DNA from: Methanobacteriota archaeon
Lineage (GTDB): Archaea > Thermoplasmatota > Poseidoniia > Poseidoniales > Poseidoniaceae
NCBI GenBank assembly: GCA_018650165.1
Contig: JABIGM010000050.1
Location: forward strand, 1 to 64,000
Length of the DNA stretch: 64,000 bases
Reading direction: 5' to 3'
Under the pieces are notes generated by a model. The model was given only the letters and a program-made list of their open reading frames with translations. It did not search any database and was not told the DNA's origin. The translations under genes and the position numbers were made by a program. Shown one piece after another: positions 36,063 through 58,776 of this stretch (the stretch's first letter is position 1; each line of letters opens with the position of its first letter).

Positions 36063-37104
36063 CTTCTCCACCTTCGTTGCTCAGTTGCAATAAAATTAAT
36101 CCAATTGATGCACTAAAGAAACTAGCCACTCCAATTATCAAATGTAGTATAGATAAACTTTCAGGGAAATCTCCCATTTTAGCAAAGACGACATACATGC
36201 CTCCCACTAAAACATTCAGTAACCAAAACCCAGTTGCCAAATCCATACATTTCGCAAAACCATGGTGTGCATTTGTCTCAGTTGCCTTCTCTCGGATTTT
36301 CATTCCACCCATAATCAATGCAATACCAACAATTCCCGCCCCTAAACGATGAACCATTTGAACAAGTATCCCACTTCCATCAAGGCTGGGGAATATGTCG
36401 CCTTGACATTTTGGCCAGCCGTCAGGGAAACCTACTGAACATCCTTGATTTCCATTTGCTGATGATGAGACCCAAGCACCAAGAATCAATAGCAAGAATA
36501 TTGCTCCTGTAAGTATCATCACGCGTTTTAATTCAGATCGTTTGAACTTCAAGGGAGCGAACATCATTGGCCAGTTAGCACCCTCGATTCGTCGCATCTT
36601 GAAATATTGCCACAATAAAATGAACACAAAGGATGATGCAAGACCGAGATGTAGTGCTACAGACCAATCTGCATTGTCAAATTTGACCGTTATTGCTCCA
36701 GCAACTCCTTGAATAGTTAACAAAATCCCAGTAAGGAATGAGACTTTCACCAGGGTATCTCCGTACACTTCTTTTCGTTTCCAAATTATCAAGAAATTTA
36801 TCAAAACTGGTATGGCCATGATACTTGCAAGTAATCTGTGAATCCATTCAGTAAATATTTCAAATGTGGTATAACGATGATCTTCTCCACGACTATCAAA
36901 CTCTCCTGTGTCATTATACCACTCACCTTGGTCTTCTTCAGAAATATCAAATCCCCAAGTCCCGAAACATTGTGGCCAATCTGGACACGATTCACCTGCA
37001 TCATAAATACGGATTGTCCCGCCAACTATGATAACCAGAACCGACATTATTACAACAGCAAGTGGTAATGTCGAGGGGCGTCGGAGCCATTCGGATACCA
37101 TCAT
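36055..37104 (-). CDS. ctaA: Heme A synthase (COX15/CtaA)
   Basis: GESCPDWPQCFG, EWIHRLLA, second Cys loop GCSVGFPDGWPKCQG, QMVHRLGA, LHL. Confidence 0.93.
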   Translation of the reverse strand: MMVSEWLRRPSTLPLAVVIMSVLVIIVGGTIRIYDAGESCPDWPQCFGTWGFDISEEDQGEWYNDTGEFDSRGEDHRYTTFEIFTEWIHRLLASIMAIPVLINFLIIWKRKEVYGDTLVKVSFLTGILLTIQGVAGAITVKFDNADWSVALHLGLASSFVFILLWQYFKMRRIEGANWPMMFAPLKFKRSELKRVMILTGAIFLLLILGAWVSSSANGNQGCSVGFPDGWPKCQGDIFPSLDGSGILVQMVHRLGAGIVGIALIMGGMKIREKATETNAHHGFAKCMDLATGFWLLNVLVGGMYVVFAKMGDFPESLSILHLIIGVASFFSASIGLILLQLSNEGGEDE

Positions 37105-38480: not shown

Positions 38481-39563
38481 CTAATTGTCTGCGGCGTAGC
38501 CGTAGAAGTTTGAATTAACTGGGTCCGCTATTGCATCTCGCTTGACTAGCATGGTCCTAACTGCCCATAGGTCGGTGAAAATACGGTACTTCAATGTCAT
38601 GTCGAGATAATCGACACCACTAGATCCTCCAGTTCCCATCCTTCTACCAATCATTCTCTCGACCATTCTAGCATGGTGTGAACGGAATAGTAGCATTGCT
38701 TGTTCTAAATCAACTACAGTATCAACAAGTCTTCTTGGCCAAGAAAGTAATGGCAATTCTCGGTATGATTCAATATACAATAGTCCTGCTCTTGCAGGAT
38801 TTGCGACTCCATCTGGGAGTAAAAAATCTCTGGCACCAACTATTCCAGATTCTATTCTTGGACGTATTGATTCTTCAGTACCATGCCCAATCTTCACCAT
38901 GTGAGCGATTACTGACTCGCCGTGCTCCACCATGGATGACAGGTGATCTTCCACATAATTTTGTAGAATTTCAGTATCACCAGATACTCCATTAACTGGA
39001 GTTCTTGCTAACCAACGGGATAACACTTCATTTAGTGAAGGCAATTCATCAATACGATTCATGTTAGCCATTACTGAATCACTTAATTTACCTTCAGAGT
39101 GCAACTTTCTATTATGTTCCATTGGGTCCATCCCTCCAACACGTTGCTCAGATTTCAACCCCAACAACATCTCCAACGTTCGCATTTGCCAACTTTCAAA
39201 GCCTGAAGAAGTTCCTAAACGGTCACGGAATGCTAGGAAATCTTGTGGTGATAACGTCTCCATTACTTTCCATTGAGAGGCCAATAGCCTGAATATCTCC
39301 GAACATCTCTCCAAATGGCTAACAACTACCGGGATTTTATTTTCTTCAACATCGGGAACATTCAGCAAATGAAGGGCTTCTTCTAATTCGCGATTAACTT
39401 GTTTGAACCACAATTCAAAGGCCTGGTGCACCACAATGAAATGCATTTCGTGGTTCGAAGGGGCTGGATCATAACCTTCAGGTCCAGATTGAAGAGATAG
39501 TAGTTCATCCAATTGTAGAAAGTTGCCGTATGTCATACGAATGCCCGGATTTTCACTGCCCAT
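38481..39563 (-). CDS. kynA: Tryptophan 2,3-dioxygenase
   Basis: TYGNFLQLDELLSLQ, HEMHFIVVHQAFELWFKQ, GTSSGFESWQMR, HHARMVERMIG, GTGGSSGVDYL. Confidence 0.93.
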   Translation of the reverse strand: MGSENPGIRMTYGNFLQLDELLSLQSGPEGYDPAPSNHEMHFIVVHQAFELWFKQVNRELEEALHLLNVPDVEENKIPVVVSHLERCSEIFRLLASQWKVMETLSPQDFLAFRDRLGTSSGFESWQMRTLEMLLGLKSEQRVGGMDPMEHNRKLHSEGKLSDSVMANMNRIDELPSLNEVLSRWLARTPVNGVSGDTEILQNYVEDHLSSMVEHGESVIAHMVKIGHGTEESIRPRIESGIVGARDFLLPDGVANPARAGLLYIESYRELPLLSWPRRLVDTVVDLEQAMLLFRSHHARMVERMIGRRMGTGGSSGVDYLDMTLKYRIFTDLWAVRTMLVKRDAIADPVNSNFYGYAADN

Positions 39564-47077: not shown

Positions 47078-48314
47078 TATTGTAGTTCACAAATTTGGCG
47101 GTTCCTGTCTTCGAGAAGGCAGTGATATCGACAGAATTGCTGAAATTATACAAAAAACACCAGGTAAGCCATTGATAGTAGTATCTGCCCTCTGGGGAAT
47201 GACTGACCGGCTATACAGGGCAGCCAGAGAACCTCATTATGCTGGACGATTAGTTCAGGATGTCACATCTCAGCACCTACTGTTTGCACCAGGGCTAGAT
47301 TCCGGCGATTTCAGTCAATTATTCAACCAAGTAATTTCTGGTATTTCTATGGAATTGGTTAAATTATCAGGTGGTGAACCATCATTACGATCTGAAAATT
47401 TAATTTTAGCCGCAGGAGAAAGACTGAGCGCCCTTGCTGTTGCACATCGACTACGTTCGATGGGAATGAATGCTCATCCTGTTGGTGCAGAAGATATTGG
47501 GTTAAAACTCAAAGGAACTGGACGTGCAAGTCAGATTGATATTGAAGCGTCATCCCAGAGTTTAAAGCGCGGGAATTTGATTGGCATTCCAATACTAACT
47601 GGATGGTTTGGTGAAGGGTCGGATGGTGATATTGCGATACTCTCAAGAGGAGGATCGGACCATTCTGCTGCTGCTTTTGCAAATTTAATGAATGCAAAGA
47701 AATTGATTCTTTGGAAAGATATTGATGGAATAAAACAATTGAATCCAAGATGGGGAATCGATACTCCAGCGATACCTTACCTCGGCTATGGGCAAGCCGC
47801 TGAATTATCGATACATGGCACACCTGTGATTCACCCAGCGACAGTCACTCCACTCATTGAACAAGGAATTCCTCTTGAGGTTCGCAACATAAATGCTCCA
47901 TTCGTAAAGGCACCTACAGTAATTGGACCGGACATCACCCCTTCATCTGCAATTGCAATTGGTTGTCATCCAGGCGTAGCAGTAATAACGCAAAGGAATT
48001 CAATCAATAGCGAATTATTGGCCCGATTGGAACAGGCTGATGTTCACCCGTGGTTGATGAACTCAACACCAGAGGAAATGCGGATGATCATCCCTACGCA
48101 TGAAATAAAGCATATCTCTGATTTGATAGAGGGCAGCATTGAGTACAAAACTGCAGTCATATCGATAATTGGTAGTTTTGATTATACCTCGATTGATTAT
48201 GAGGTTGTATCTACTAACGAATATGGAACTCGATATATCATAGAAACAAAGGACTTACATCAAGCCCTACGTAACTTGTATCAGTCCTTGTTTTCTCTCC
48301 AAGATTGCAAGTGA
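47070..48314 (+). CDS. lysC: Aspartate kinase
   Basis: VHKFGGS, VVSALWGMTD, AAGERLSA, LSRGGSDHSA, WKDIDG, VIHPAT. Start at ATG 47070 overlapping the aroC end. Confidence 0.85.
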   Translation: MSDIVVHKFGGSCLREGSDIDRIAEIIQKTPGKPLIVVSALWGMTDRLYRAAREPHYAGRLVQDVTSQHLLFAPGLDSGDFSQLFNQVISGISMELVKLSGGEPSLRSENLILAAGERLSALAVAHRLRSMGMNAHPVGAEDIGLKLKGTGRASQIDIEASSQSLKRGNLIGIPILTGWFGEGSDGDIAILSRGGSDHSAAAFANLMNAKKLILWKDIDGIKQLNPRWGIDTPAIPYLGYGQAAELSIHGTPVIHPATVTPLIEQGIPLEVRNINAPFVKAPTVIGPDITPSSAIAIGCHPGVAVITQRNSINSELLARLEQADVHPWLMNSTPEEMRMIIPTHEIKHISDLIEGSIEYKTAVISIIGSFDYTSIDYEVVSTNEYGTRYIIETKDLHQALRNLYQSLFSLQDCK

Positions 48315-49201
48315 GTTGGAAGGTCTAAGATGAAAAGACCGCCAACGATTATGAATACAAAGAGAGTACCTAGTGCCACTCCATAAACCGAAATCAATTC
48401 TACTGATTCTTCCATTCGAAGGGCGGTTTGTTCCGAGAATAGGCTAATGAAGGCTGGTAGAATTGTATTTACTGAAAGTACCAGCATTGCAAGCGTTCCA
48501 GCAATTAGTGGATTGATAACTAATGAACGGTGGTATTTACCAATAATTTTCTTGACATTCATGACATAAACTTCACGGGTTCTGATAGAAGTATCAAGCA
48601 TACTGAATCGGAGTACACCATTAGATAGTTCGAAATACATTACAAGGAGGACGGCATAGATTACCACAAGAATAGTTAGCATCAATTCACTTTCCATAAA
48701 TGCTTCACCAAACAAGTCTTGTGAAAATGAAACCTTTGAAGATGCAAATCTCATTACAGATAGGATGAATAAAACATAAGATACTAACAAGAATCTAGCA
48801 TCTCTGAACATTGTGCCCCAGAATCCAGTTCCTACTGCACAGACTACAACCATTATTTGGAGTATACTTGCTACTGTCATTGAGCCTGTTACTGTAAACC
48901 AAATAGTTCCGACTGCAGGTGTAACGATGTAAGTTAGAATACCCAATGCGATGAGAACGCCATAGCACCCAAGTTGAAGGTTTTGCACCATCTTATCCGC
49001 AGGTAAGAATTTCATTTTTGGGACTAGGGGGCCACCCAATAAGCTCTCAATGAAAGTAGGAATCTCGACTGTTGGAATTGCATCCTTCGGGATTTCTCCT
49101 GAAGAAGAAGAGGTTCCTGCAAGCTTCTTTCTAGAAGGTGCAGAAGAGCGGACGGTTTTTCCGTCATATAGATGGGCTGTGTCACCGGACTTTGTCGCCA
49201 T
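48281..49201 (-). CDS. Hypothetical polytopic membrane protein (MoxR operon)
   Basis: About 7 hydrophobic helices; follows the DUF58 gene by 12 nt. Confidence 0.75.
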   Translation of the reverse strand: MATKSGDTAHLYDGKTVRSSAPSRKKLAGTSSSSGEIPKDAIPTVEIPTFIESLLGGPLVPKMKFLPADKMVQNLQLGCYGVLIALGILTYIVTPAVGTIWFTVTGSMTVASILQIMVVVCAVGTGFWGTMFRDARFLLVSYVLFILSVMRFASSKVSFSQDLFGEAFMESELMLTILVVIYAVLLVMYFELSNGVLRFSMLDTSIRTREVYVMNVKKIIGKYHRSLVINPLIAGTLAMLVLSVNTILPAFISLFSEQTALRMEESVELISVYGVALGTLFVFIIVGGLFILDLPTHLQSWRENKD

Positions 49202-49213
49202 AATATTCCCTCC

Positions 49214-50536
49214 TCAGAATCCTCTTGCACCTGCTAGTGCGGTAGATAGAAGCATATCTGGCTCCCAATCCATGATGTTGACTCCCAAACTGCTCAGTTC
49301 GCTAATCAGTACATCTCTTTCGGTTTTCAGAACTTCATAACCAGTACGGTCGAGTCTCTTAGCATCGAATTCAAATTCGAGGCTTGAAGGTGAAAGTACA
49401 GTAACATCGAAATTACGAGCTCTGAAATCACGTAGTGCACTAATAATCGTAGGATCATCTTCTAAATTTGAAAGTACGATAATTGGACTTCCCTTATTGA
49501 TATGCGGTAATATTCGGTTAACTACCACTTGAAGTGGTACGTTTCCACGAGCCATTGCGCCTGCTAATTTAGTTAGTATGACGTACAATTGTTTCTTACC
49601 AGTGTCACGGTCTACACTTACAACTTCATCACCGTAGGTGATAAGTCCAACCGAATCTCGTCGACCAAGGAAAAACTTAGCAAGACTAGCGGCCGCCCTT
49701 GTCGAGTAAACCAATGCATTTCGTGAAACAGGACCTGTTTCGGAAACTGCACGTGAATCCACAATCAGAATGATATCACTGACTGCATCTCTCTCACGCT
49801 CATTGACCATTAATTTACCACTACGGGCATATGCAGACCAGTTAATCGCTCGGAATGAATCTCCTTCGAAATACTCACGGAGTGAGTAAAACTCGGAACC
49901 AGGTCCTGGTTGACGGATATTTACCGCACCTGTGAAAATTTTCGGAACACGTGATTTGACGAATGTATCTTTCAATTCTTCCATCTTCGGGAACACAAGG
50001 AAGTCGTTGTAGACATGCAGCTCTTTTTCCTTGTGGAATAACCCGAATGGGTCTTGAACACGGACAGCAACCGGGCCAAGGCTGTAGAATCCTCTCAAGG
50101 GGCATTCGACTGTGTATTCGATGAAGGTTTCACGGCGTGGACCAAGTTCCATTAAGATGTAATTTGCACCATCTTTGATGCGCATTACTTCAGGTACTCG
50201 GTCACGTACTTCCAGAATCTTTCCTAGTGCAGAGTGATTTTGCATACGCAAAGTCACTCCAACTTCACCATCTTCGAAAATTCGGGCACTAGAGAGTTTG
50301 CGCATTGCAGAGACATTAGAAAGAGCAACTCCTTCTTCACCTGTCCATTCATCAGCACGACGACCACTTGCAGATACATCTGCGTGGCTGCCGAATAATG
50401 CGGCCCATGTAAGGAATACAAAGATTACCACAGCAATGGTAACCAGTTGAGAATTCCTCAAGGTTAGACCTAGCAAATACATTGCTACTGCCAGGGATCC
50501 CAGCATTGCACTCTTACGACTCCACATGCTACGCAC
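49214..50536 (-). CDS. DUF58 family (vWA-related) protein
   Basis: RGFYSLGPV...DPFGLF, GSEFYSLREYFEGD, INWSAYAR, RRDSVGL. Confidence 0.92.
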   Translation of the reverse strand: MRSMWSRKSAMLGSLAVAMYLLGLTLRNSQLVTIAVVIFVFLTWAALFGSHADVSASGRRADEWTGEEGVALSNVSAMRKLSSARIFEDGEVGVTLRMQNHSALGKILEVRDRVPEVMRIKDGANYILMELGPRRETFIEYTVECPLRGFYSLGPVAVRVQDPFGLFHKEKELHVYNDFLVFPKMEELKDTFVKSRVPKIFTGAVNIRQPGPGSEFYSLREYFEGDSFRAINWSAYARSGKLMVNERERDAVSDIILIVDSRAVSETGPVSRNALVYSTRAAASLAKFFLGRRDSVGLITYGDEVVSVDRDTGKKQLYVILTKLAGAMARGNVPLQVVVNRILPHINKGSPIIVLSNLEDDPTIISALRDFRARNFDVTVLSPSSLEFEFDAKRLDRTGYEVLKTERDVLISELSSLGVNIMDWEPDMLLSTALAGARGF

Positions 50537-50563
50537 TCTCTCTATTTCCGATCATTAATTTAA

Positions 50564-51739
50564 TCAAACGGTTGGTACAGGTACTTCGCGTAAGATTGCT
50601 TGGATAACTTCACCAGGTTCTAGACCTTTGATCTGGTGTTCAGGCTTCAAGATAATTCTGTGTGCTAGAGCTAATTCTGCAACGGTCTTAATGTCATCAG
50701 GAGTGATGAAATCGCGACCACGTAGAGCTGCTGCTGCGCGTGAAGTCTTCAGGAGAGCCTGAGAACCACGAGGTGAAGCGCCGACTAGAACACGAGGATC
50801 TTCACGGGTTCTTGTTACAACTTCAACCATGTACATGCGTAGAGCTGGGTCGACATAAATGTCTTCACATGCTTGTTGCATAGCGATAACACGCTGTGGG
50901 TCTGTGATAACATCGACATCGACGGCATCCTTTCCACGTTCAATACGACGGCGCAGAATTTCATCTTCATCTGCACGATCTGGGTAACCTACGCTCATCT
51001 TGAACAGGAAACGGTCAAGTTGTGCTTCAGGTAGTGGGTATGTTCCTTCTTGTTCGACAGGGTTTTGTGTTGCCATAACAATAAATGGCGCTGGGAGTTT
51101 GTGAGTGACTGTACCGATAGTCACCTGCTTCTCTTGCATAGCCTCAAGCAAAGCAGCTTGAGTCTTTGGAGGAGCACGGTTAATCTCGTCAGCTAGTAGC
51201 AGGTTACAAAATAGTGGACCTGGTTTGAAGGTAAATTCTCCCTTCTTAGCATCGTAGATGTTTGTACCGGTAATGTCTGCTGGTAGCAAATCCGGAGTAA
51301 ACTGCACACGCTTGAAGTCACAACCTAACGCATCTGCGAAAGTATTGGTCATCAAAGTCTTAGCAAGTCCTGGATAATCTTCGAACAGTAGGTTACCGTT
51401 TGATAGAATATTGATCAGAACGTTGTCAATAACGTGTGCCTTACCGATAATTACCTTCTGGACTTCGGCGCTAATCGCTGACGATATCGCTCCGACGGCC
51501 TGAAGACGTTCACGGACCTCTGGGCTACTCTGGTGTTTAGGCTGTGCCTGTGCCGGGGCTGGTGCTGCGGGTGCAGGTGCTGCAGGGGCTGGGGCCGGTG
51601 CTGCTACTGGCATAGGTGCCGGTGCTGCAGGTGCAGGCGCTGGTGGCGCTGCTGGGGCCGGGGCCGGTGCTGGCGGTGCTGCTGGTGCAGGTGGTGCCGG
51701 CGCAGGGGGGGCTGCGGGTGGTGGTGGTGCTGGCTGCAT
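50564..51739 (-). CDS. moxR: MoxR family AAA+ ATPase with Pro/Ala-rich N-terminal extension
   Basis: EDYPGLAKT, RVQFTPDLLPADITG, LLADEINRAPPKTQAALLEAM, ATQNPVEQEGTYPLPEAQLDRF, GASPRG. Confidence 0.95.
   Translation of the reverse strand: MQPAPPPPAAPPAPAPPAPAAPPAPAPAPAAPPAPAPAAPAPMPVAAPAPAPAAPAPAAPAPAQAQPKHQSSPEVRERLQAVGAISSAISAEVQKVIIGKAHVIDNVLINILSNGNLLFEDYPGLAKTLMTNTFADALGCDFKRVQFTPDLLPADITGTNIYDAKKGEFTFKPGPLFCNLLLADEINRAPPKTQAALLEAMQEKQVTIGTVTHKLPAPFIVMATQNPVEQEGTYPLPEAQLDRFLFKMSVGYPDRADEDEILRRRIERGKDAVDVDVITDPQRVIAMQQACEDIYVDPALRMYMVEVVTRTREDPRVLVGASPRGSQALLKTSRAAAALRGRDFITPDDIKTVAELALAHRIILKPEHQIKGLEPGEVIQAILREVPVPTV
51541..51739 (-). repeat. Low-complexity Pro/Ala repeat (PAPA/APPA) coding region
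   Basis: About 66 aa MQPAPPPPAAPPAPAPP...APAPAQAQ; much more GC-rich than flanking DNA. Confidence 0.9.
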
Positions 51740-51759
51740 GTCTTTTTTACCTCCTTAGG

Positions 51760-53340
51760 TTATTTCCCCCAAAGTCGAATTTGCTGCAAAATTTGCCTCA
51801 GTTCTTCGTTGGAGTATGAACGCTGTTGTGAATACAACAACTCAATCAGGCGTGGGTCCTTTACCATGGACTGGATTTCACCTGGTGTTTTCCTGGCCAT
51901 TTCATCACGGGTCAGGTCGCTAACTTGGCGCACTTTGGCCATCATGGCCTCCCGCACGCGGGTAAGATATAGATTCGGATCTACTTTGTTTGGTCTTTCC
52001 CTGAATCTCGTAAGGTCGAATACATGGCGCCAATTTTCTTTCTCTGGAACCACCATAATTGCAATAGATAGCAAAGCCATCAGATTCAGTACAATCAACC
52101 ACTTCAACAAGGTATCACTTGTTAACATTACAATTGCACCCATCGCCTCTGTGAATGGAGATGAAATCGCTGAAGTTATGTGGCGTGATTCATCGAATAC
52201 AATGTAGAAGTTTTTATTTTCACGAGTTATTGTCAACGAAATTTCGTCATTCTCGTGCTCCATCATATCCCTGATTAGTGTGACAAAATAATCTTTATTG
52301 CCTTTCCAATCAGTTTCGCTCCCATCTTGGGAAGAAAGTAATGATTCCCAGCATGACCTTCCGTCATAGTGGATTGAATCACATTGTTGCTTACCAGTAA
52401 CTTCTGCATCTGCAATATCCCAAAGATGGTTAGCAAATACGGAGTGGTCGGAAATGAATACAATACTTCCAGTTACATCGACTTCTCCTTCTCGAATACC
52501 CTTGACTTGGTCAATAGTTTCGATTCCAGGATAATCCATACGTACAATTAGCCCGGTGTTATTACCTCCGAGAATCGGATTGTCTTTGTCGTTTGCGTCC
52601 ATGTTTTCTCTAGCTATGAAAGCAGAGCCTGAAGCATGAGCCAGTACCTTCACATTACGTGAACTATCTTCATTATCTAGAACCTGAATCGCAGTAGGCC
52701 TGTGGAAGAGAATCGGTAGCGCACAATCATCGAATTCACCTGCGTTTGAAAGGTTAGAATCGCTGCAGTACGGTCGCCTCTCATACTGGTCTTCCCATAC
52801 TTTGTTTACTCCAGCAACTGCCCATAACTTTCGTGCATCTGGCGCCTCTTGTACACCAGTTTGGCTAGCTACCTCGTAGTATCTGTTTGGATCGACGACT
52901 GGGGCATCAAAAAATTTCACATCGAACTTATCTGCAACTGTTTGAGCATTGGTAGAGTTTGATGCGATTATGACCTTGCCACCGTTCTGAGTGACGAAAT
53001 CATAAATTGCATCAGCTTCAGAATTATCAAATGGTTTCTCAGGTGCTGCAATGATTAGCATTGTGCGGTGAGGTTCCCTCCAATCATTCACCAACATTGG
53101 AGTAGACATTGTATTTGCAATAACATAATCCAGTCCGTCATCACCAAGATCTCCTCTCATGGTAGATATCTGCTGATACTGAAGATTAGTATCCTCACTA
53201 TCTGTAACATAAGCAGAATACACGGTCTCCTTACCAGAAGCTGTTACAATGATGACAGTTGTTGAAAGTAGCATGGCTGCGACGAAGCCAACTAGTAACC
53301 AAGTTTCTAACTTGACCCCTGTTGTCTCTTCATCAGCCAT
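51760..53340 (-). CDS. DUF4350-like membrane-anchored protein (MoxR operon)
   Basis: N-terminal TM, LIIAAPEKPF..EADAIYDFVTQNGGKVIIA, VFISDHSVFAN, VFDESRH then TM; typical partner upstream of MoxR. Confidence 0.7.
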   Translation of the reverse strand: MADEETTGVKLETWLLVGFVAAMLLSTTVIIVTASGKETVYSAYVTDSEDTNLQYQQISTMRGDLGDDGLDYVIANTMSTPMLVNDWREPHRTMLIIAAPEKPFDNSEADAIYDFVTQNGGKVIIASNSTNAQTVADKFDVKFFDAPVVDPNRYYEVASQTGVQEAPDARKLWAVAGVNKVWEDQYERRPYCSDSNLSNAGEFDDCALPILFHRPTAIQVLDNEDSSRNVKVLAHASGSAFIARENMDANDKDNPILGGNNTGLIVRMDYPGIETIDQVKGIREGEVDVTGSIVFISDHSVFANHLWDIADAEVTGKQQCDSIHYDGRSCWESLLSSQDGSETDWKGNKDYFVTLIRDMMEHENDEISLTITRENKNFYIVFDESRHITSAISSPFTEAMGAIVMLTSDTLLKWLIVLNLMALLSIAIMVVPEKENWRHVFDLTRFRERPNKVDPNLYLTRVREAMMAKVRQVSDLTRDEMARKTPGEIQSMVKDPRLIELLYSQQRSYSNEELRQILQQIRLWGK

Positions 53341-53441
53341 TTAGTGTCACCTCGAATTCGGCTACGAGCAAACGCAACATCTTTCGCAACTTCGGACCAT
53401 TCATATAGATTCTCGTGGCTTGCTCAATAATAATATTGGAA

Positions 53442-53471
53442 TATCATTCCCGATGAAGCGGTATCATTCCC
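53442..53471. promoter_or_regulatory. 10-bp direct repeat TATCATTCCC x2, 20-bp period, upstream of the MoxR operon
   Basis: Copies at 53442-53451 and 53462-53471, flanked by inverted TGCTCAA (53421-53427) / TTGAGCA (53475-53481). Confidence 0.4.
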
Positions 53472-53494
53472 TATTTGAGCACAAATAACGCCGA

Positions 53495-54421
53495 TTAACG
53501 ACGAATTGTGGCAGCAAACATTACCGTTAAAATACAAATAAAGGCTGAAATTGCAGGAAGTGAATTTTCTTTAACTTCAAAATCAGAAGAGTCCGTACTA
53601 TCATTTCCTTCATCTTCTTCTTTGACCAAAACGTCTGGCGCATCAACATTAAATTCCAATTCACCCTCATACGAGATGCCGTTTCCTTCACTGGTAATAG
53701 TTACAATAAATTTGCAGGTTTTATCTGGGTGGCTAGAAGGAGCAAGTAATTTGACTGTACCTGCTTTGCTAACAGATATCGCTTCGCCTGTGTTCAAGGC
53801 TGTTATTTGTTCAAAGTTCATCTGAGGGCAACCTTTGAACGAAAGCCCTATTTTCGTTAAAGCATCGTCTACATTACCAATATTTAGTACACGGATTGTT
53901 ACTTCTTCATGGGTACCAGATTTTATTTCAGGCCCTTTACCATTAACCACTGGTTCAAATTCAATTTCAAATCCAAAGACTGATGAAAATTGAACTTGCT
54001 TTTCTATTTCTTTTTCACCAATACTCTGATCTCCAAAGAGAAGGGTCGCTTTCAAAGTAACAATATCGTAATGAGACTGCCTCGCATCTATCAATTCGCC
54101 ATTACTATTCAATCCACTTCCTGAGATCATTAATTCAAATGTCTCATTCGAGTTTGCCGAAACCGATACTTTCCCAGGGTCATCGACAATGAATAAATCA
54201 TTGGTCTCTATTTCAAAATCAAGGTCTGCAGGCACAGGCCGAGAATTGTCCACCCAGAATTTGATAACTAATTCAAAATTATAATTTGAATCTAATTCCA
54301 TAATCATAGGTTCTTTATCGCTATCCCATCCAATTTCCCAATCAGGGACACCTACATCTTGGGCACTTACAACAGGGCTGAGTATTGCCAATAGCAAAAT
54401 AGATGAGATGATTTTCTTCAT
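53495..54421 (-). CDS. Secreted Ig-like protein with PGF-CTERM-like C-terminal sorting signal
   Basis: Signal peptide MKKIISSILLLAILSPVVSA; C-terminus ENSLPAISAFICILTVMFAATIRR. Confidence 0.75.
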   Translation of the reverse strand: MKKIISSILLLAILSPVVSAQDVGVPDWEIGWDSDKEPMIMELDSNYNFELVIKFWVDNSRPVPADLDFEIETNDLFIVDDPGKVSVSANSNETFELMISGSGLNSNGELIDARQSHYDIVTLKATLLFGDQSIGEKEIEKQVQFSSVFGFEIEFEPVVNGKGPEIKSGTHEEVTIRVLNIGNVDDALTKIGLSFKGCPQMNFEQITALNTGEAISVSKAGTVKLLAPSSHPDKTCKFIVTITSEGNGISYEGELEFNVDAPDVLVKEEDEGNDSTDSSDFEVKENSLPAISAFICILTVMFAATIRR

Positions 54422-54425
54422 TTTA

Positions 54426-55370
54426 TCACTCCTCACATGCTCTTTTGACAAGTATTTTGATCATATTTCTTCGATACCTTGGCGGTAAAGCAGTATTGTT
54501 AACCGGTTTCGTTGAATCGTAGATTGCATTACAAATTGCTTTAACATCGCCATTAGAGATTGCTACTTCCTCATCATGTCTGCGAGGAATACTTTCCAAA
54601 GCAGTTGTTGCAACTCTTAGTGTACTTCTGTCACCCTTCTTCCATGCGGCTGCTGCGCCAGCTTCTGGAAAATCCCATGACTCTCTAACTCGTAACTTGC
54701 GATAGGCTCCAATCCAGTCCTCTACATCATCGGGTAGAGTTACTTTCAGCATAAATTCACCAGGCTGCAGAATATTTCGCGTCATTCCATCTAGTTGATA
54801 GAACTCATTTACCAATACATTTCGAGGGCCATTTGGGCCAATCAGATGTGCTGTAGCATTCAAAACCATCAACGTTGGAGCGATATCTCCTTGGTAAGTA
54901 GCGACACACAACTCATTTTGGTTAGGAATCACTCGGCAATCAGAGCCTGTTCCACAATCACACTTGTGGCACCAATCAATACTACTTCGCCACTCTTCTG
55001 TTTGATTATACCAGAAACATCGAGTATCCAAGCAAAGATTTCCGCCAAGAGTGGCGTTTCTTCGAATTAGCGAGGAAGCCACTTTACTAGCGGCTTCCGC
55101 TACAAGTGGGTGAGCATTGCCACCTTCTGCGAGGTCATGTAATCGTGCCATACAGCCTATTTCGGTCAGAGAAATAGAATCGATTCCTGCGATTTTTGCG
55201 AGTGAAATCACATGAGGTTTAGTATTAATGTGCCATTTGTAATTTGGAATTAAATCGGTGCCTCCTGCGACCCAATCAAATTCTTCACCTGCTTCTAACA
55301 GTCCAGCGGCTATTACACAGGCATCTTCCACAGATTGAGGATGGTGTAATTCAAACGGTGGCATCAGCAT
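54426..55370 (-). CDS. hcrB: Xanthine-dehydrogenase-family FAD subunit with 4Fe-4S insertion (HcrB-like)
   Basis: AGGTDL, IRRNATLGGNLC, Cys-rich insert RCFWYNQTEEWRSSIDWCHKCDCGTGSDCRVIPNQNELC, RKLRVRESWDFP. Confidence 0.8.
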   Translation of the reverse strand: MLMPPFELHHPQSVEDACVIAAGLLEAGEEFDWVAGGTDLIPNYKWHINTKPHVISLAKIAGIDSISLTEIGCMARLHDLAEGGNAHPLVAEAASKVASSLIRRNATLGGNLCLDTRCFWYNQTEEWRSSIDWCHKCDCGTGSDCRVIPNQNELCVATYQGDIAPTLMVLNATAHLIGPNGPRNVLVNEFYQLDGMTRNILQPGEFMLKVTLPDDVEDWIGAYRKLRVRESWDFPEAGAAAAWKKGDRSTLRVATTALESIPRRHDEEVAISNGDVKAICNAIYDSTKPVNNTALPPRYRRNMIKILVKRACEE

Positions 55371-58171
55371 TACTTACCATCCTCCATTTTTCTTTGCTCG
55401 ATTTTAGTCCAAGCACTACCTGCAAGGCCAAGCCCCTCTAATTGTTCAGAGGTAGGCCTCACTGCGATTTTCCAATCTCCATCTTGGTCCTCGGGGGGAA
55501 CGGTTGGGTCAAATCCAAATAATACTCCATTGATGTAAGGGTCGGTATCTTCTGAACGCTGACGGCGACTATCTCTTCCTCCGTGTTGTGAAGAACGCTG
55601 AACAATTTTTTGCTGTAACTCAGAGAAATCTAAACGTGGCGTAGGTAGGTCTTGGGCCTCAGCAATGTCTTCTCTCTTCATTTTCTTTGCAATTGCTGCC
55701 CAAACCTTGTCTGGTGTCAAAGGTAAATCATTGATTCTGATTCCAATTGCATCGTAAACTGCATTTACCACTGCAGGGAGAATTGGTAGAAGTGGGCCTT
55801 CTCCTGCTTCTTTAGCCCCGAATGGCCCTTCTGGGTCACATGATTCAATTATTATTGGAGTTACATTTGGCATTTCGTGAACACTTGGGATCTTGTAATC
55901 AAGTAAATTTGGATTCTGTAGATGACCGGTTCTCCCATACACCATTTGTTCTGAAAGCACCTGACCCAGACCCATATGGCAAGAACCGATGATTTGCCCT
56001 TCTACTGCGAGTGGATTCAGTGCTTTACCACAATCATGAGCGGCCCAAACATCTGTACATTTGATGAGTCCTGTTTCAACATCAACATCAACTTCGGCAA
56101 CATAGGCTGAAAACGAATATGCAGGAGCAAGGCCCGCTGCTGCACCTTTGTGAACTCCTCCCATCGGCGGTGTTCTGTACGCACCACTAGCAATTAGCGC
56201 ACCTTTGTCCTCTTGTGATTTATGCAATGCCTCGAGATAAGAAACTCCAATCGCGGGGTCTCTTTTACTGTAAATTCTCCTGTCGTTCAGTATCAAATAT
56301 TCCGCCGGCATATCCAATATGCCACTCGCCGCATCCACCAATTGCTCACGAATTTCGAGTGCTGCACTGATGGCAGCATTCGCATTCATGAATGTGACTC
56401 GAGATGAATATGAGCCTAAATCAACTGGACTAGTATCGCTTTCATGGGAGCGAACATGTATCATTTCCAATGGGAGTGCTAACACTTCTGCAACCACTTG
56501 GGCTATAGCAGTAGTAGACCCTTGTCCAATATCTGCAGCACCGGTATGAACTGTAACGCCTCCATCCATATCAATCTGGATATGTACGGTCGCATGAGGG
56601 AATTTATTTGGATCCCAATGAATAGGAAGTCCAGACCCTGATATGAAGAAACCACATCCGATTCCGATTCCCTTTCCTAAAGGTAATTTCCTGAACTTAG
56701 AATCCCACTGGCTACCTTCGCGCACTCGCTCTAATGCTTGCCGCATACCATTCGATGTAATTCTGAATCCAGTAATTGTTTTTGAATGTGGAGGTAATAA
56801 ATTTGCTAACCGTAAATCGATAGGATCTACTTGTAATTTTTCAGCCAAATCATCCATACCTACTTCGATTGCACATCTAGTGTTCACAGCACCATGGCCG
56901 CGCATTGCTCCACTAGCCGGTTTGTTTGTCCAAACACGAGCACCGGTATAATGGAAGGAACCTAACTCGTATGGAGCGGTTGCTAAAACACCATTGTAGT
57001 AAGAAGTGACGTGGCCAAAAGACGCAAATCCGCCTCCGTCAATCAAAGCATCAATCTCAAATCCGGAAATTCTCGCATCCTCATCTGCAAACATTTGTAC
57101 TTCGATGTGAGAGGGATGGCGTCCACGATTTACCCAAAAGACCTCTTCTCTGTCAAAAGTAATTCTAACTGGGCGCCCCGCTTTTCTGGCTAAAATCGCC
57201 GCACACATTTCATGCGGGAAAGGATCTGACTTTCCACCAAATCCACCGCCAACAAATGTTCGTATCACGTTGACCTGGTGCATTGGGACATCTAGAACAG
57301 TCGCTAGAGCTCTGTGTGCATAGTGCGGTACTTGCTGGGGGGTGTACAGTTGTAGACGCCCGTTTGAATCCCAATGAGCAACAACAGCATGGGGTTCGGT
57401 GAAGCCATGATTGACACCCATGAATTTCCATTTGCCATGGTGTGTTGCTCTGGCTTGTTCTAATTTGGAACGGTCACCAAACTCTTGGAAAACTCTTTTT
57501 TGAACATTGGTGGAGCCAATGTGATATTGCCCGCGCCAATGGATTGGATCATCAACGTCCAATAATCCCTTTTTGGGGTCATGAACCGCATCTAGAACTT
57601 CATATTCCACTTCGATTAATGCCGCCGCTTCACGAGCAGTTGGTTCGTCAATTGCAGCAACACAAGCCACAAGGTCCCCTACATGCCTGACTTTTTCAAC
57701 AGCCATTGCGTGTTCATCTTTTGTCACCGGTAGTACACCAAAGCGCTGCGGTGCATCAGCACCTGTAGACACCGCTAAAACGCCCGGTAGTGCTTCGGCT
57801 TTGGAAGTATCAATACTCTTAACCTTAGCATAATGATGAGGTGAACGAACAATTCTTCCAATTATTTCATTTGGCAATCGCACATCATCACCATACCATG
57901 CCTGGCCCGTAACTTTGGCATTACCATCAACTAAAGGAGTTCTTTTTCCAACAGATGTTCCAGTCCTGTATTTATCATGAAGATGTTGACCTGCCGGCTG
58001 TGATTCATTTCCGCCTTCAACTTCTGGGATGAAATCCATGTCTCTATCGGCCATTTCGGGCCTTGAACCACCTGAACCGGGAGGATTAAATTTAATTTTA
58101 CCTGCAACACGCTTTCCATCAACACGAACATCAGTGTTGCTTCCAGGTTGTTGAACATAGCCATCAGTCAT
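55370..58171 (-). CDS. hcrA: Xanthine-dehydrogenase-family molybdopterin-binding subunit (HcrA-like)
   Basis: KVTGQAWYGDD, QQVPHY, GGGFGGK, PASGAMRGHG, DIGQGS, GSYSSRVT, GAKEAGEGP. Confidence 0.8.
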   Translation of the reverse strand: MTDGYVQQPGSNTDVRVDGKRVAGKIKFNPPGSGGSRPEMADRDMDFIPEVEGGNESQPAGQHLHDKYRTGTSVGKRTPLVDGNAKVTGQAWYGDDVRLPNEIIGRIVRSPHHYAKVKSIDTSKAEALPGVLAVSTGADAPQRFGVLPVTKDEHAMAVEKVRHVGDLVACVAAIDEPTAREAAALIEVEYEVLDAVHDPKKGLLDVDDPIHWRGQYHIGSTNVQKRVFQEFGDRSKLEQARATHHGKWKFMGVNHGFTEPHAVVAHWDSNGRLQLYTPQQVPHYAHRALATVLDVPMHQVNVIRTFVGGGFGGKSDPFPHEMCAAILARKAGRPVRITFDREEVFWVNRGRHPSHIEVQMFADEDARISGFEIDALIDGGGFASFGHVTSYYNGVLATAPYELGSFHYTGARVWTNKPASGAMRGHGAVNTRCAIEVGMDDLAEKLQVDPIDLRLANLLPPHSKTITGFRITSNGMRQALERVREGSQWDSKFRKLPLGKGIGIGCGFFISGSGLPIHWDPNKFPHATVHIQIDMDGGVTVHTGAADIGQGSTTAIAQVVAEVLALPLEMIHVRSHESDTSPVDLGSYSSRVTFMNANAAISAALEIREQLVDAASGILDMPAEYLILNDRRIYSKRDPAIGVSYLEALHKSQEDKGALIASGAYRTPPMGGVHKGAAAGLAPAYSFSAYVAEVDVDVETGLIKCTDVWAAHDCGKALNPLAVEGQIIGSCHMGLGQVLSEQMVYGRTGHLQNPNLLDYKIPSVHEMPNVTPIIIESCDPEGPFGAKEAGEGPLLPILPAVVNAVYDAIGIRINDLPLTPDKVWAAIAKKMKREDIAEAQDLPTPRLDFSELQQKIVQRSSQHGGRDSRRQRSEDTDPYINGVLFGFDPTVPPEDQDGDWKIAVRPTSEQLEGLGLAGSAWTKIEQRKMEDGK

Positions 58172-58188
58172 TGTAACACCTCATTTGA

Positions 58189-58776
58189 CTAATTTGGACC
58201 TGAAGGATGGGGGTCAGAGTGGGCTGAACTCGCAGGCTTTGCCGGTGAAGCATCTCCTCTATGGATCTCAGCCGCTGCTTGGATTGATTGAATTATTTGC
58301 TGATATCCTGTACAGCGACAAAGATTACCTTCGATAGCAGTTGATATCTCTGCATCGGTAGGATTAGGATTCTTATCGAGCAGTGCTTGAGAGGAAATTA
58401 AGAAACCAGGCGTACAAAAGCCACATTGGGAACCTCCATGCTCTGCAAAACATTGCTGAATCGGTGCGAGGTGAGCGCCATCAGCAAGCCCTTCAACTGT
58501 CGTGATTGTGCTGCCTTGTACATCTTGAGCCATGGTAAGGCAAGATAAACGTGGTTGGCCATCTACCATCACTGCGCAGCAACCACATGTCCCCATGTCA
58601 CAACCGCGCTTCACTCCGAGGCATCCAACTTTATCTCTAAGGACATCTAGTAAGACTGCATTAGAAGGGGCTAACACCTCTTGAGGTTGCCCATTAACCT
58701 CTGAGTTCCAAACTTTAGTATGTGCCGCTGGAATCATAGAAACATGCTCATCACCTACCATCTGAGACACCAACAA
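58189..58776 (-). CDS. hcrC: 2x[2Fe-2S] subunit of XDH-family enzyme (HcrC-like)
   Basis: GCDMGTCGCC...SCL, QCGFCTPG, NLCRCTGY. Confidence 0.85.
   Translation of the reverse strand: MLVSQMVGDEHVSMIPAAHTKVWNSEVNGQPQEVLAPSNAVLLDVLRDKVGCLGVKRGCDMGTCGCCAVMVDGQPRLSCLTMAQDVQGSTITTVEGLADGAHLAPIQQCFAEHGGSQCGFCTPGFLISSQALLDKNPNPTDAEISTAIEGNLCRCTGYQQIIQSIQAAAEIHRGDASPAKPASSAHSDPHPSGPN

Follow-up and report, generated by a model that had tools for sequence, protein, structure and literature searches.

A core molybdenum enzyme of Poseidoniales archaea in the 4-hydroxybenzoyl-CoA reductase superclade

Marine Group II (MGII) archaea are uncultured, they rank with the most abundant heterotrophs in surface seawater, and their diet has been deduced from genomes. 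The chemistry of 4-hydroxybenzoyl-CoA reductase (HCR) is taught as strictly anaerobic. Here we describe a three-gene operon at positions 54426-58776 of contig JABIGM010000050.1 (GenBank assembly GCA_018650165.1), which almost certainly encodes a functional enzyme of the HCR superclade with molybdenum-molybdopterin cytosine dinucleotide (Mo-MCD), FAD and iron-sulfur clusters. The window analysed consists of the first 64,000 nucleotides of this contig, and the host is a Poseidoniales archaeon of the family Poseidoniaceae (MGIIa). By sequence comparison the protein is not an equivalog of HCR; it belongs to a Thermoplasmatota branch of the superclade, and it is a core gene of the whole order Poseidoniales, not part of a niche pathway. 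As its function we tentatively favour that of a ferredoxin-linked enzyme which dehydroxylates a para-hydroxyaryl-CoA and thereby supplies a BoxB-type oxygenase route. No description of the enzyme was found in the literature searched.

Gene organisation and predicted cofactors

The three genes are co-directional open reading frames (ORFs) on the minus strand. Their order and coordinates had been given exactly in the original prediction, made from the sequence of the window: a HcrC-like small subunit that has a pair of [2Fe-2S] motifs (58776..58189, 195 residues), a HcrA-like molybdenum (MCD) subunit (58171..55370, 933 residues) and a HcrB-like FAD subunit (55370..54426, 314 residues). A GAGGTG motif is located 6 nt ahead of the ATG of the Mo-subunit gene, and the latter shares a TAATG overlap with the FAD-subunit gene, so that the three genes are probably translated as a unit. 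Pfam domains were identified above their gathering scores in each subunit (Fer2_2 and Fer2 in the small subunit; Ald_Xan_dh_C, MoCoBD_1 and MoCoBD_2 in the Mo subunit; FAD_binding_5 in the FAD subunit), and together they constitute the domain set of a heterotrimeric Mo-MCD hydroxylase of the xanthine oxidase family. The enzyme is predicted to carry an extra [4Fe-4S] cluster in addition to molybdenum-MCD, FAD and two [2Fe-2S] clusters. Direct reading of the N-termini of all three subunits revealed no twin-arginine motif.

Relationship to 4-hydroxybenzoyl-CoA reductases

For each subunit the best NCBIfam family is the corresponding HCR family, i.e. TIGR03193 for the small subunit (187.7 bits, cut-off 257.8), TIGR03194 for the Mo subunit (800.5 bits, cut-off 994.55) and TIGR03195 for the FAD subunit (219.5 bits, cut-off 404.55); bona fide hcr loci, taken as controls, score 1143-1352 bits. 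The best match of the Mo subunit among Protein Data Bank (PDB) structures is 1RM6_A, from the HCR of Thauera, with 623 bits, followed by the next entry at only 272 bits. The FAD subunit matches 1RM6_B best, both by sequence (158.9 bits) and by fold, with a template-modelling (TM) score of 0.84 for its AlphaFold model on this chain. These matches bear out the earlier assignment as an Hcr-type enzyme and identify HCR as the nearest characterised relative of all three subunits, which supports the function favoured here. The gene order (small, large, FAD) and the domain set are likewise the same as in HcrCAB of Thauera aromatica (1RM6/1SB3) and HbaBCD of Rhodopseudomonas palustris. Sequence identity amounts to 48-50% between the small subunit and that of bona fide hcr loci, 33-34% between the FAD subunit and its equivalog-grade relatives, and 39-41% between the Mo subunit and equivalog-grade HcrA, compared to 57-58% between the Mo subunit and other Thermoplasmatota homologues. 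Public pipelines label the gene either '4-hydroxybenzoyl-CoA reductase subunit alpha' or 'xanthine dehydrogenase family protein'.

Family tree analysis was performed on 177 Mo subunits, among them 150-odd representatives of 50% clusters, seven sequences from MGII, eight from other Thermoplasmatota and 22 from named loci (Aromatoleum, Thauera, Sulfuritalea, Geothrix and alphaproteobacteria) that were retrieved with the equivalog-grade sequence P0136. In a tree of this sampling the MGII proteins cluster with HCR and not with an oxidative hydroxylase, the grouping that the original prediction had named as a refutation. The HCR superclade, with MGII inside, has a support of 0.998. Within it the bona fide HcrA clade, i.e. 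the 22 loci and P0136, is monophyletic (support 1.0), is set on a long stem and excludes MGII, which fall in a Thermoplasmatota clade with a support of 0.999, or 0.962 if the Marine Group III (MGIII) branch is included. Support for a sister relation between the bona fide and the archaeal clade is only 0.53, and the next neighbour in the superclade is a bacterial clade around P0124-P0131. In the phylum Thermoplasmatota an HcrA-like homologue is present in 87 of 301 genomes, and none of the 87 reaches the equivalog cut-off.

Active site and extensions of the molybdenum subunit

The Mo subunit contains both the AMRGHG and the KEAGEGP motif that the original prediction had pointed out. As an HcrA signature we took 84 positions at which bona fide HcrA is conserved and its residue is rare in the outgroup. 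The MGII enzyme shares 32 of them, namely those found throughout the superclade, including H426 (in AMRGHG), Y392, R412 and a loop at residues 513-527 that is without counterpart in the outgroup; AMRGHG, Y392 and this loop are thus common to the MGII enzyme and HcrCAB. Residues 516-518 in the loop read PIH in MGII and PVH in bona fide HcrA. E791, the catalytic Glu, is conserved, which is compatible with a reductive as well as an oxidative direction. Form I aerobic CO dehydrogenase was rejected as a candidate, as the active-site loop reads GAMRGHG instead of AYRCSFR with its Cu-binding Cys, and the score on TIGR02416 is 288.8 bits against a cut-off of 991.

A second candidate function is that of a xanthine or purine dehydrogenase, in line with the putative xanthine dehydrogenase reported in MGIIb genomes on the basis of 'xdhC and yagS' genes (Damashek et al. 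2021, PMC9723583). MGIIb show high transcription of a xanthine/uracil permease, the automatic annotation points to the xanthine dehydrogenase family, and NCBIfam XdhA models rank second for the Mo subunit with 524 and 517 bits. However, XdhA models are only second-best for the superclade members tested, and the scores on XdhA/XdhB models are all far under the cut-offs (524.2 vs 780, 516.6 vs 916 and 278.1 vs 849.5 bits). The tree places the protein in the HCR superclade, apart from the 117 remaining representatives, which are unlabelled. Residues S315, Y392 and H426 of MGII align with E802, R880 and F914 of bovine xanthine dehydrogenase, of which E802 and R880 bind purines. The purine-binding residues are missing, and xanthine dehydrogenase, which we rejected on this ground, is very improbable. 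Judged from this alignment, the superclade-specific H426 and Y392 would occupy positions where the bovine enzyme binds its substrate.

The alignment with 1RM6 covers residues 73-827 of the Mo subunit and leaves an N-terminal extension of about 72 residues (residues 1-72; 57956..58171, minus strand) and a C-terminal one of about 105 residues (residues 831-933; 55373..55681, minus strand) outside, in agreement with the lengths of some 70 and 105 residues noted earlier. Both extensions are specific for MGII, being absent from the closest non-MGII homologues, and distinguish the MGII protein from HcrA; they are about 40% conserved across the MGII families and have fixed motifs. In the N-terminal extension (35-68% identity) the motifs GYxQQPGK..F..PGSGG, IP..GG and H.HD are kept in both MGII families, and in the C-terminal extension (40-52% identity across MGII) the motifs Y.NG..FG.DP and AG.AW. 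The C-terminal extension is absent from the six closest homologues of other Thermoplasmatota (L032, L033 and L035-L038), in which the alignments end near residue 830-846, and also from the MGIII locus L034, the fused 2Fe-2S-Mo form in L031 and HcrA. An AlphaFold2 model of the Mo subunit has a confidence (pLDDT) of 83.9. Residues 1-60 have a pLDDT below 40, and the model suggests that the N-terminal extension is probably ordered only within the complex. Residues 831-927 are predicted to fold and to include a long helix (852-872); their pLDDT lies mostly at 83-96, apart from one block of 10 residues at 70.

The [4Fe-4S] loop of the FAD subunit

The FAD subunit carries a Cys-rich insertion at residues 113-160 (54891..55034, minus strand), a predicted binder of the [4Fe-4S] cluster. 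The cysteines C118, C134, C145 and C155, singled out in the original prediction, occupy the positions of the four cysteines that hold the cluster in Thauera HcrB (1RM6_B). Neither these nor R117, N122, Q123, W127, R128 and K136 vary among 20 aligned FAD subunits, which were drawn from MGII, other Thermoplasmatota and bona fide hcr loci; the residues flanking the cysteines are the same as in HcrCAB. The distant fused form in L031 has no such loop. In the MGII subunit, which was modelled without metal, the loop has a low pLDDT. Unlike HcrB, the MGII loop has a three-residue insert, which is confined to Poseidoniales and contains C137 and C139. These two extra cysteines do exist, but the altered cluster ligation that had been suggested for them was rejected: the residues vary within the order (A137 in one MGIIa genome, L025, and Y139 in a third family, L026), so that they are unlikely to be cluster ligands.

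The [4Fe-4S] loop had been regarded as a hallmark of HcrB/HbaD. This does not hold, since sequence and fold matches show the loop also in the oxidative enzyme PaoABC (bioRxiv 10.64898/2026.07.15.738685) and in 5Y6Q. Furoyl-CoA dehydrogenase HmfB may carry it as well; a review on furans makes no mention of this. The E. coli PaoABC (5G5G/5G5H) is likewise a heterotrimer of the xanthine oxidase family with a four-Cys [4Fe-4S] loop in its FAD subunit, and among the sequence matches of the MGII FAD subunit PaoB ranks second and 5Y6Q_B third, all sharing the Cys loop. A PaoABC-like aldehyde oxidoreductase that detoxifies aromatic aldehydes would fit these likenesses. PaoABC is far more distant than HCR, however: as PDB matches, PaoB reaches 76.9 bits and PaoC 217, and the family scores are much below the cut-offs (PaoC 300.9 vs 1180, PaoA 127.8 vs 322 bits). 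PaoABC is oxidative and periplasmic and has a twin-arginine signal, whereas no subunit of the MGII enzyme has one, and the position in the tree is elsewhere. Scores and motifs led us to reject this candidate, and such a function is unlikely. The urolithin C 9-dehydroxylase of Enterocloster bolteae (Ucdh/UcdCFO) is described as about 33% identical to HCR, lacking the [4Fe-4S] loop, using NADH and acting on a substrate that is not a CoA ester, and by this description it is set apart from the MGII enzyme.

Distribution, maturation genes and the aerobic host

The Mo subunit was detected in 150 of 151 genomes sampled across Poseidoniales, including all 58 high-quality genomes and all 22 genera, as a single-copy, full-length protein with 68-90% identity. 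In the genome under study, which is 80% complete, it is the sole MoCoBD_1 protein found; one protein of the DMSO reductase family is also encoded. A search of plasmids brought up no relative above 36% identity, and the names of those found were uninformative. Rinke et al. (PMC6461757) included synthesis of the molybdenum cofactor (Moco) in the core metabolism of MGII and linked it mainly to nitrate reductase. The present enzyme is a universal Moco client in Poseidoniales.

The genome encodes MoaC and MoeA for Moco synthesis as well as putative maturation proteins, an XdhC chaperone and a MocA-type cytidylyltransferase (G000:C28:68219-69594, minus strand), so that the molybdopterin synthesis which the original prediction asked for is present. 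Together with an acyl-CoA dehydrogenase gene these form an overlapping minus-strand operon (G000:C28:68219-70714; L011:6220-8715), about 9.5 kb from the Hcr-type operon and 4-7 kb past the end of the window. As the MocA-like protein scores 60.2 bits against a cut-off of 186.45 (TIGR03310) and XdhC 115.4 against 161.6, the two are named from their Pfam domains and their position. MGIIb genomes have the MocA-like gene and xdhC directly upstream of the gene for the small subunit, and the acyl-CoA dehydrogenase gene remains beside them despite rearrangements. We considered this dehydrogenase as a diagnostic for the pathway and rejected it, as it is of a generic short-chain type, its best matches being AcrC and cyclohexanecarboxyl-CoA dehydrogenase, far under cut-off. 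Acyl-CoA genes are nevertheless persistent neighbours, i.e. the acyl-CoA dehydrogenase with MocA/XdhC in MGII, and thiolase with acyl-CoA dehydrogenase in MGIII. In the MGIII genome (G176, L034:7572-13878), only the 2Fe-2S and Mo subunits are encoded side by side, without an adjacent FAD subunit; they are flanked by a thiolase gene, by an acyl-CoA dehydrogenase gene that takes the position of the FAD subunit, and by another thiolase-like gene.

The host respires oxygen. The window encodes haem A synthase (36127-37062) and tryptophan 2,3-dioxygenase (38547-39536), both recognised at the outset. A 2-oxoacid:ferredoxin oxidoreductase of the Sulfolobus type is encoded on the same contig, and reduced ferredoxin should thus be available. 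The remark that benzoyl-CoA reductase and CoA ligase are lacking was confirmed on a larger sample: the BcrAD/BadFG ATPase family is present in only two of 41 MGIIa genomes, and no member of the benzoate-CoA ligase family (TIGR02262) was found at E<=1e-30 in 11 genomes of the genus. These results bear directly on the earlier suggestion of a cryptic low-oxygen aromatic pathway, in which a true HCR would operate in an anaerobic benzoyl-CoA pathway, e.g. inside particles. Such a pathway would agree with HCR being the closest studied relative with the same cofactor set, and with the nitrate reductase that some MGII genomes are reported to encode (PMC6461757). Against it stand the scarcity of the reductase ATPase, for which we rejected this candidate, the failure to find a ligase, the position outside the bona fide HcrA clade and the presence of the enzyme throughout the order, regardless of habitat. 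We consider it quite improbable. In these respects, i.e. the aerobic host, the rare reductase ATPase and the aryl-CoA ligase not found, MGII differ from the organisms with HcrCAB.

Linkage of hcr and box genes in bacteria

With the short BoxB of MGII (see below) as probe, a BoxB homologue was identified within 3-6 kb in eight of 80 bona fide hcrA loci; in the two of these loci that were scored it is full-length and of equivalog grade. One example is a metagenome-assembled genome of Emcibacter sp. (L093:7447-15409), in which hcrC-hcrA-hcrB-boxC-boxB form one plus-strand operon, followed by a gene for a BzdR/BoxR-type regulator. The genes scored, hcrA, boxC and boxB, are all above the NCBIfam equivalog cut-offs, and the operon thus joins an 'anaerobic' reductase to an O2-dependent epoxide pathway. 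In Pseudolabrys (L116), hcrCAB is followed by a benzoate-CoA ligase gene and is convergent with boxB-boxC.

A similar linkage was observed in the non-equivalog clade around P0124, represented by 80 metagenome loci, 44 of which have at least 5.5 kb of flanking sequence on one side. The boxC-boxB pair is present in 12 of these 44, mostly with an aryl-CoA ligase. Three of the 80 loci (two among the 44) have a short BoxB, 47-50% identical to that of MGII, without BoxC, beside the HCR-like Mo enzyme; these genes are located on metagenome contigs at L128:14904-16088, L143:7909-9024 and L147:1632-3035, with an aryl-CoA ligase in L128 and L147 and none in the short flank of L143. On either side of the archaeal clade, the bacterial clade is thus physically linked to oxygenases that consume benzoyl-CoA. 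These bacterial hcr-box clusters are themselves known from genes alone, and in the literature searched we found them only in passing, for SAR324 (PMC4782131).

The occurrence of an Hcr-type enzyme in an aerobe had been seen as an anomaly. With equivalog-grade hcrCAB in one operon with boxC-boxB in Emcibacter and adjoining them in Pseudolabrys, with the short BoxB of MGII, and with the [4Fe-4S] loop also found in PaoABC, it is less anomalous than it had seemed.

The BoxA equivalog was not found in four alphaproteobacterial genomes with hcr-box loci, nor in MGII. The hcr-box loci L108, L116 and L117 encode proteins of 589-626 residues with a BoxA-like FNR-type reductase domain, scoring 77-81 bits and far under the BoxA cut-off; the BoxA-like FNR-type proteins are located at G410:C1:2738094-2738738, G409:C14:47252-47914 and G411:C1:645055-645714. 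They may replace BoxA.

The short BoxB-like protein of MGII

A search for bcr, bad and box genes, as suggested in the original prediction, gave a divided answer. The bcr-type ATPase is rare, as described above, and neither BoxC nor BoxA was found, but a short relative of BoxB, which epoxidises benzoyl-CoA with O2, had been missed before and is nearly a core protein of MGII, with 39 of the 41 MGIIa genomes and all 21 MGIIb genomes encoding it. It is about 390-416 residues in length and scores 170-217 bits on TIGR03225 (cut-off 499) versus 38 bits on PaaA. In the genome under study the gene lies elsewhere, in a cluster at C7:3773-7285. The neighbours in this cluster and in another MGIIa genome (G003, L120:2815-10546) are genes for 3-hydroxyacyl-CoA dehydrogenase, an EamA transporter and proteins of 183, 334 and 196 residues, and divergent genes for an aldehyde dehydrogenase and a crotonase. 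The latter has as best match the 'oxepin-CoA hydrolase, alternative type', below threshold.

The MGII and bacterial systems have the same pairing of an HCR-superclade enzyme with a BoxB-type di-iron oxygenase in oxygen users. They differ in that the bacterial genes are adjacent, usually together with boxC and a gene of the benzoate-CoA ligase type, whereas the two modules are unlinked in MGII. That the hcr-like gene and the short boxB-like gene are obligately inherited together was considered and is not supported: among Thermoplasmatota other than Poseidoniales, nine genomes have both genes, 15 only the hcr-like and 16 only the boxB-like gene, and seven of the nine genomes with both are from one family.

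Proposed function and its main rival

The phylogenetic bracket and the shared short BoxB lead us to favour a dehydroxylase, and we propose the following mechanism, in which we infer what the substrate is, which way the electrons flow, that ferredoxin is the partner and that the short BoxB is coupled to the enzyme. Ferredoxin would be reduced by the 2-oxoacid:ferredoxin oxidoreductase of the genome and would hand single electrons to the [4Fe-4S] cluster at the surface of the enzyme, from where they would pass through FAD and the two [2Fe-2S] clusters to molybdenum. There, the para-hydroxyl group of an aromatic acyl-CoA, 4-hydroxybenzoyl-CoA or a close analogue, would be removed. The resulting aryl-CoA could then be attacked by the short BoxB-type di-iron oxygenase encoded elsewhere in the same genomes. 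As a whole this would be an oxygen-tolerant, CoA-dependent route for phenolic acids that would 'reduce first, then epoxidise'.

Several observations weigh against this proposal. All three subunits score below the HCR equivalog cut-offs, and 52 of the 84 HcrA signature positions differ in MGII, including GGGFG-H-R, PKDNG, R378 and W732. Peripheral catabolic enzymes do not usually show a strictly core distribution. Only generic crotonases match BoxC in MGII; with neither a ligase nor BoxC or BoxA found, the formation of the CoA ester and the opening of the ring are without an assigned enzyme. Moreover, in no archaeon does the hcr-like gene adjoin the short boxB-like gene, and outside Poseidoniales the family f22 has only the hcr-like gene, and f23 and f29 only the boxB-like gene.

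Many of the same observations would suit the main rival explanation, an ordinary oxidative Mo hydroxylase or dehydrogenase acting on an aromatic, heterocyclic or CoA-bound substrate. Electrons would then flow in the opposite direction, from molybdenum through the [2Fe-2S] clusters and FAD to the [4Fe-4S] cluster, and on to ferredoxin or a one-electron carrier of the aerobic chain. The low family scores, the missed signature positions and the failure to find BoxC, or an aryl-CoA ligase in the 11 genus genomes, would be in line with such an enzyme, as would the aerobic host, the catalytic Glu and the [4Fe-4S] loop shared with oxidative PaoABC and with 5Y6Q; the core distribution would suggest a housekeeping substrate. 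On the other hand, the HCR superclade holds no characterised oxidative enzyme, the similarity to PaoC is far lower than that to HcrA (300.9 vs 800.5 bits), and the flanking bacterial clades are tied to Box genes and aryl-CoA ligases, which fits the removal of a hydroxyl group and not its addition. We regard an oxidative function as possible but doubtful. It would make the MGII enzyme the first oxidative member of the HCR superclade and offer a handle on what sets the catalytic direction.

The dehydroxylase proposal can be extended to the whole order, with clearly less confidence. It is conceivable, if speculative, that all MGII run an oxygen-tolerant hybrid pathway, in which ferredoxin-driven Hcr-type para-dehydroxylation is combined with ring opening by the short BoxB without BoxA or BoxC, and that the same logic is followed in several bacterial phyla. 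Phenolic acyl-CoA esters from phytoplankton or from tyrosine might be the source in this joint scheme. Reductive dehydroxylation would then be a widespread aerobic strategy, and the retention of Moco synthesis in the order would be explained. If the enzyme is indeed a dehydroxylase that works together with a BoxB-type oxygenase, marine phenolic acids would have a sink in MGII and HCR chemistry would be common in oxic habitats; compounds of the 4-hydroxybenzoate type would be a rational choice for enrichment, cultivation and isotope probing.

Genes downstream of the operon

The block directly downstream of the operon (window 48281-54451, minus strand) is syntenic in all six other Poseidoniales loci compared. 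Its products are a surface protein of low conservation that has a C-terminal anchor, proteins with DUF4350 and DUF58, a MoxR AAA ATPase and a protein of 306 residues. The surface protein and the DUF4350, MoxR and DUF58 proteins were considered as functional partners of the enzyme and rejected: they are syntenic, but no functional link was seen. On the opposite (plus) strand of the MoxR and DUF4350 genes, an ORF of 224 residues rich in Cys, Arg and Trp is present at 51533-52207, within the sole 2-kb stretch of raised G+C content (0.495). We regard this ORF as most likely spurious, an antisense frame that runs across a coding region of low complexity.

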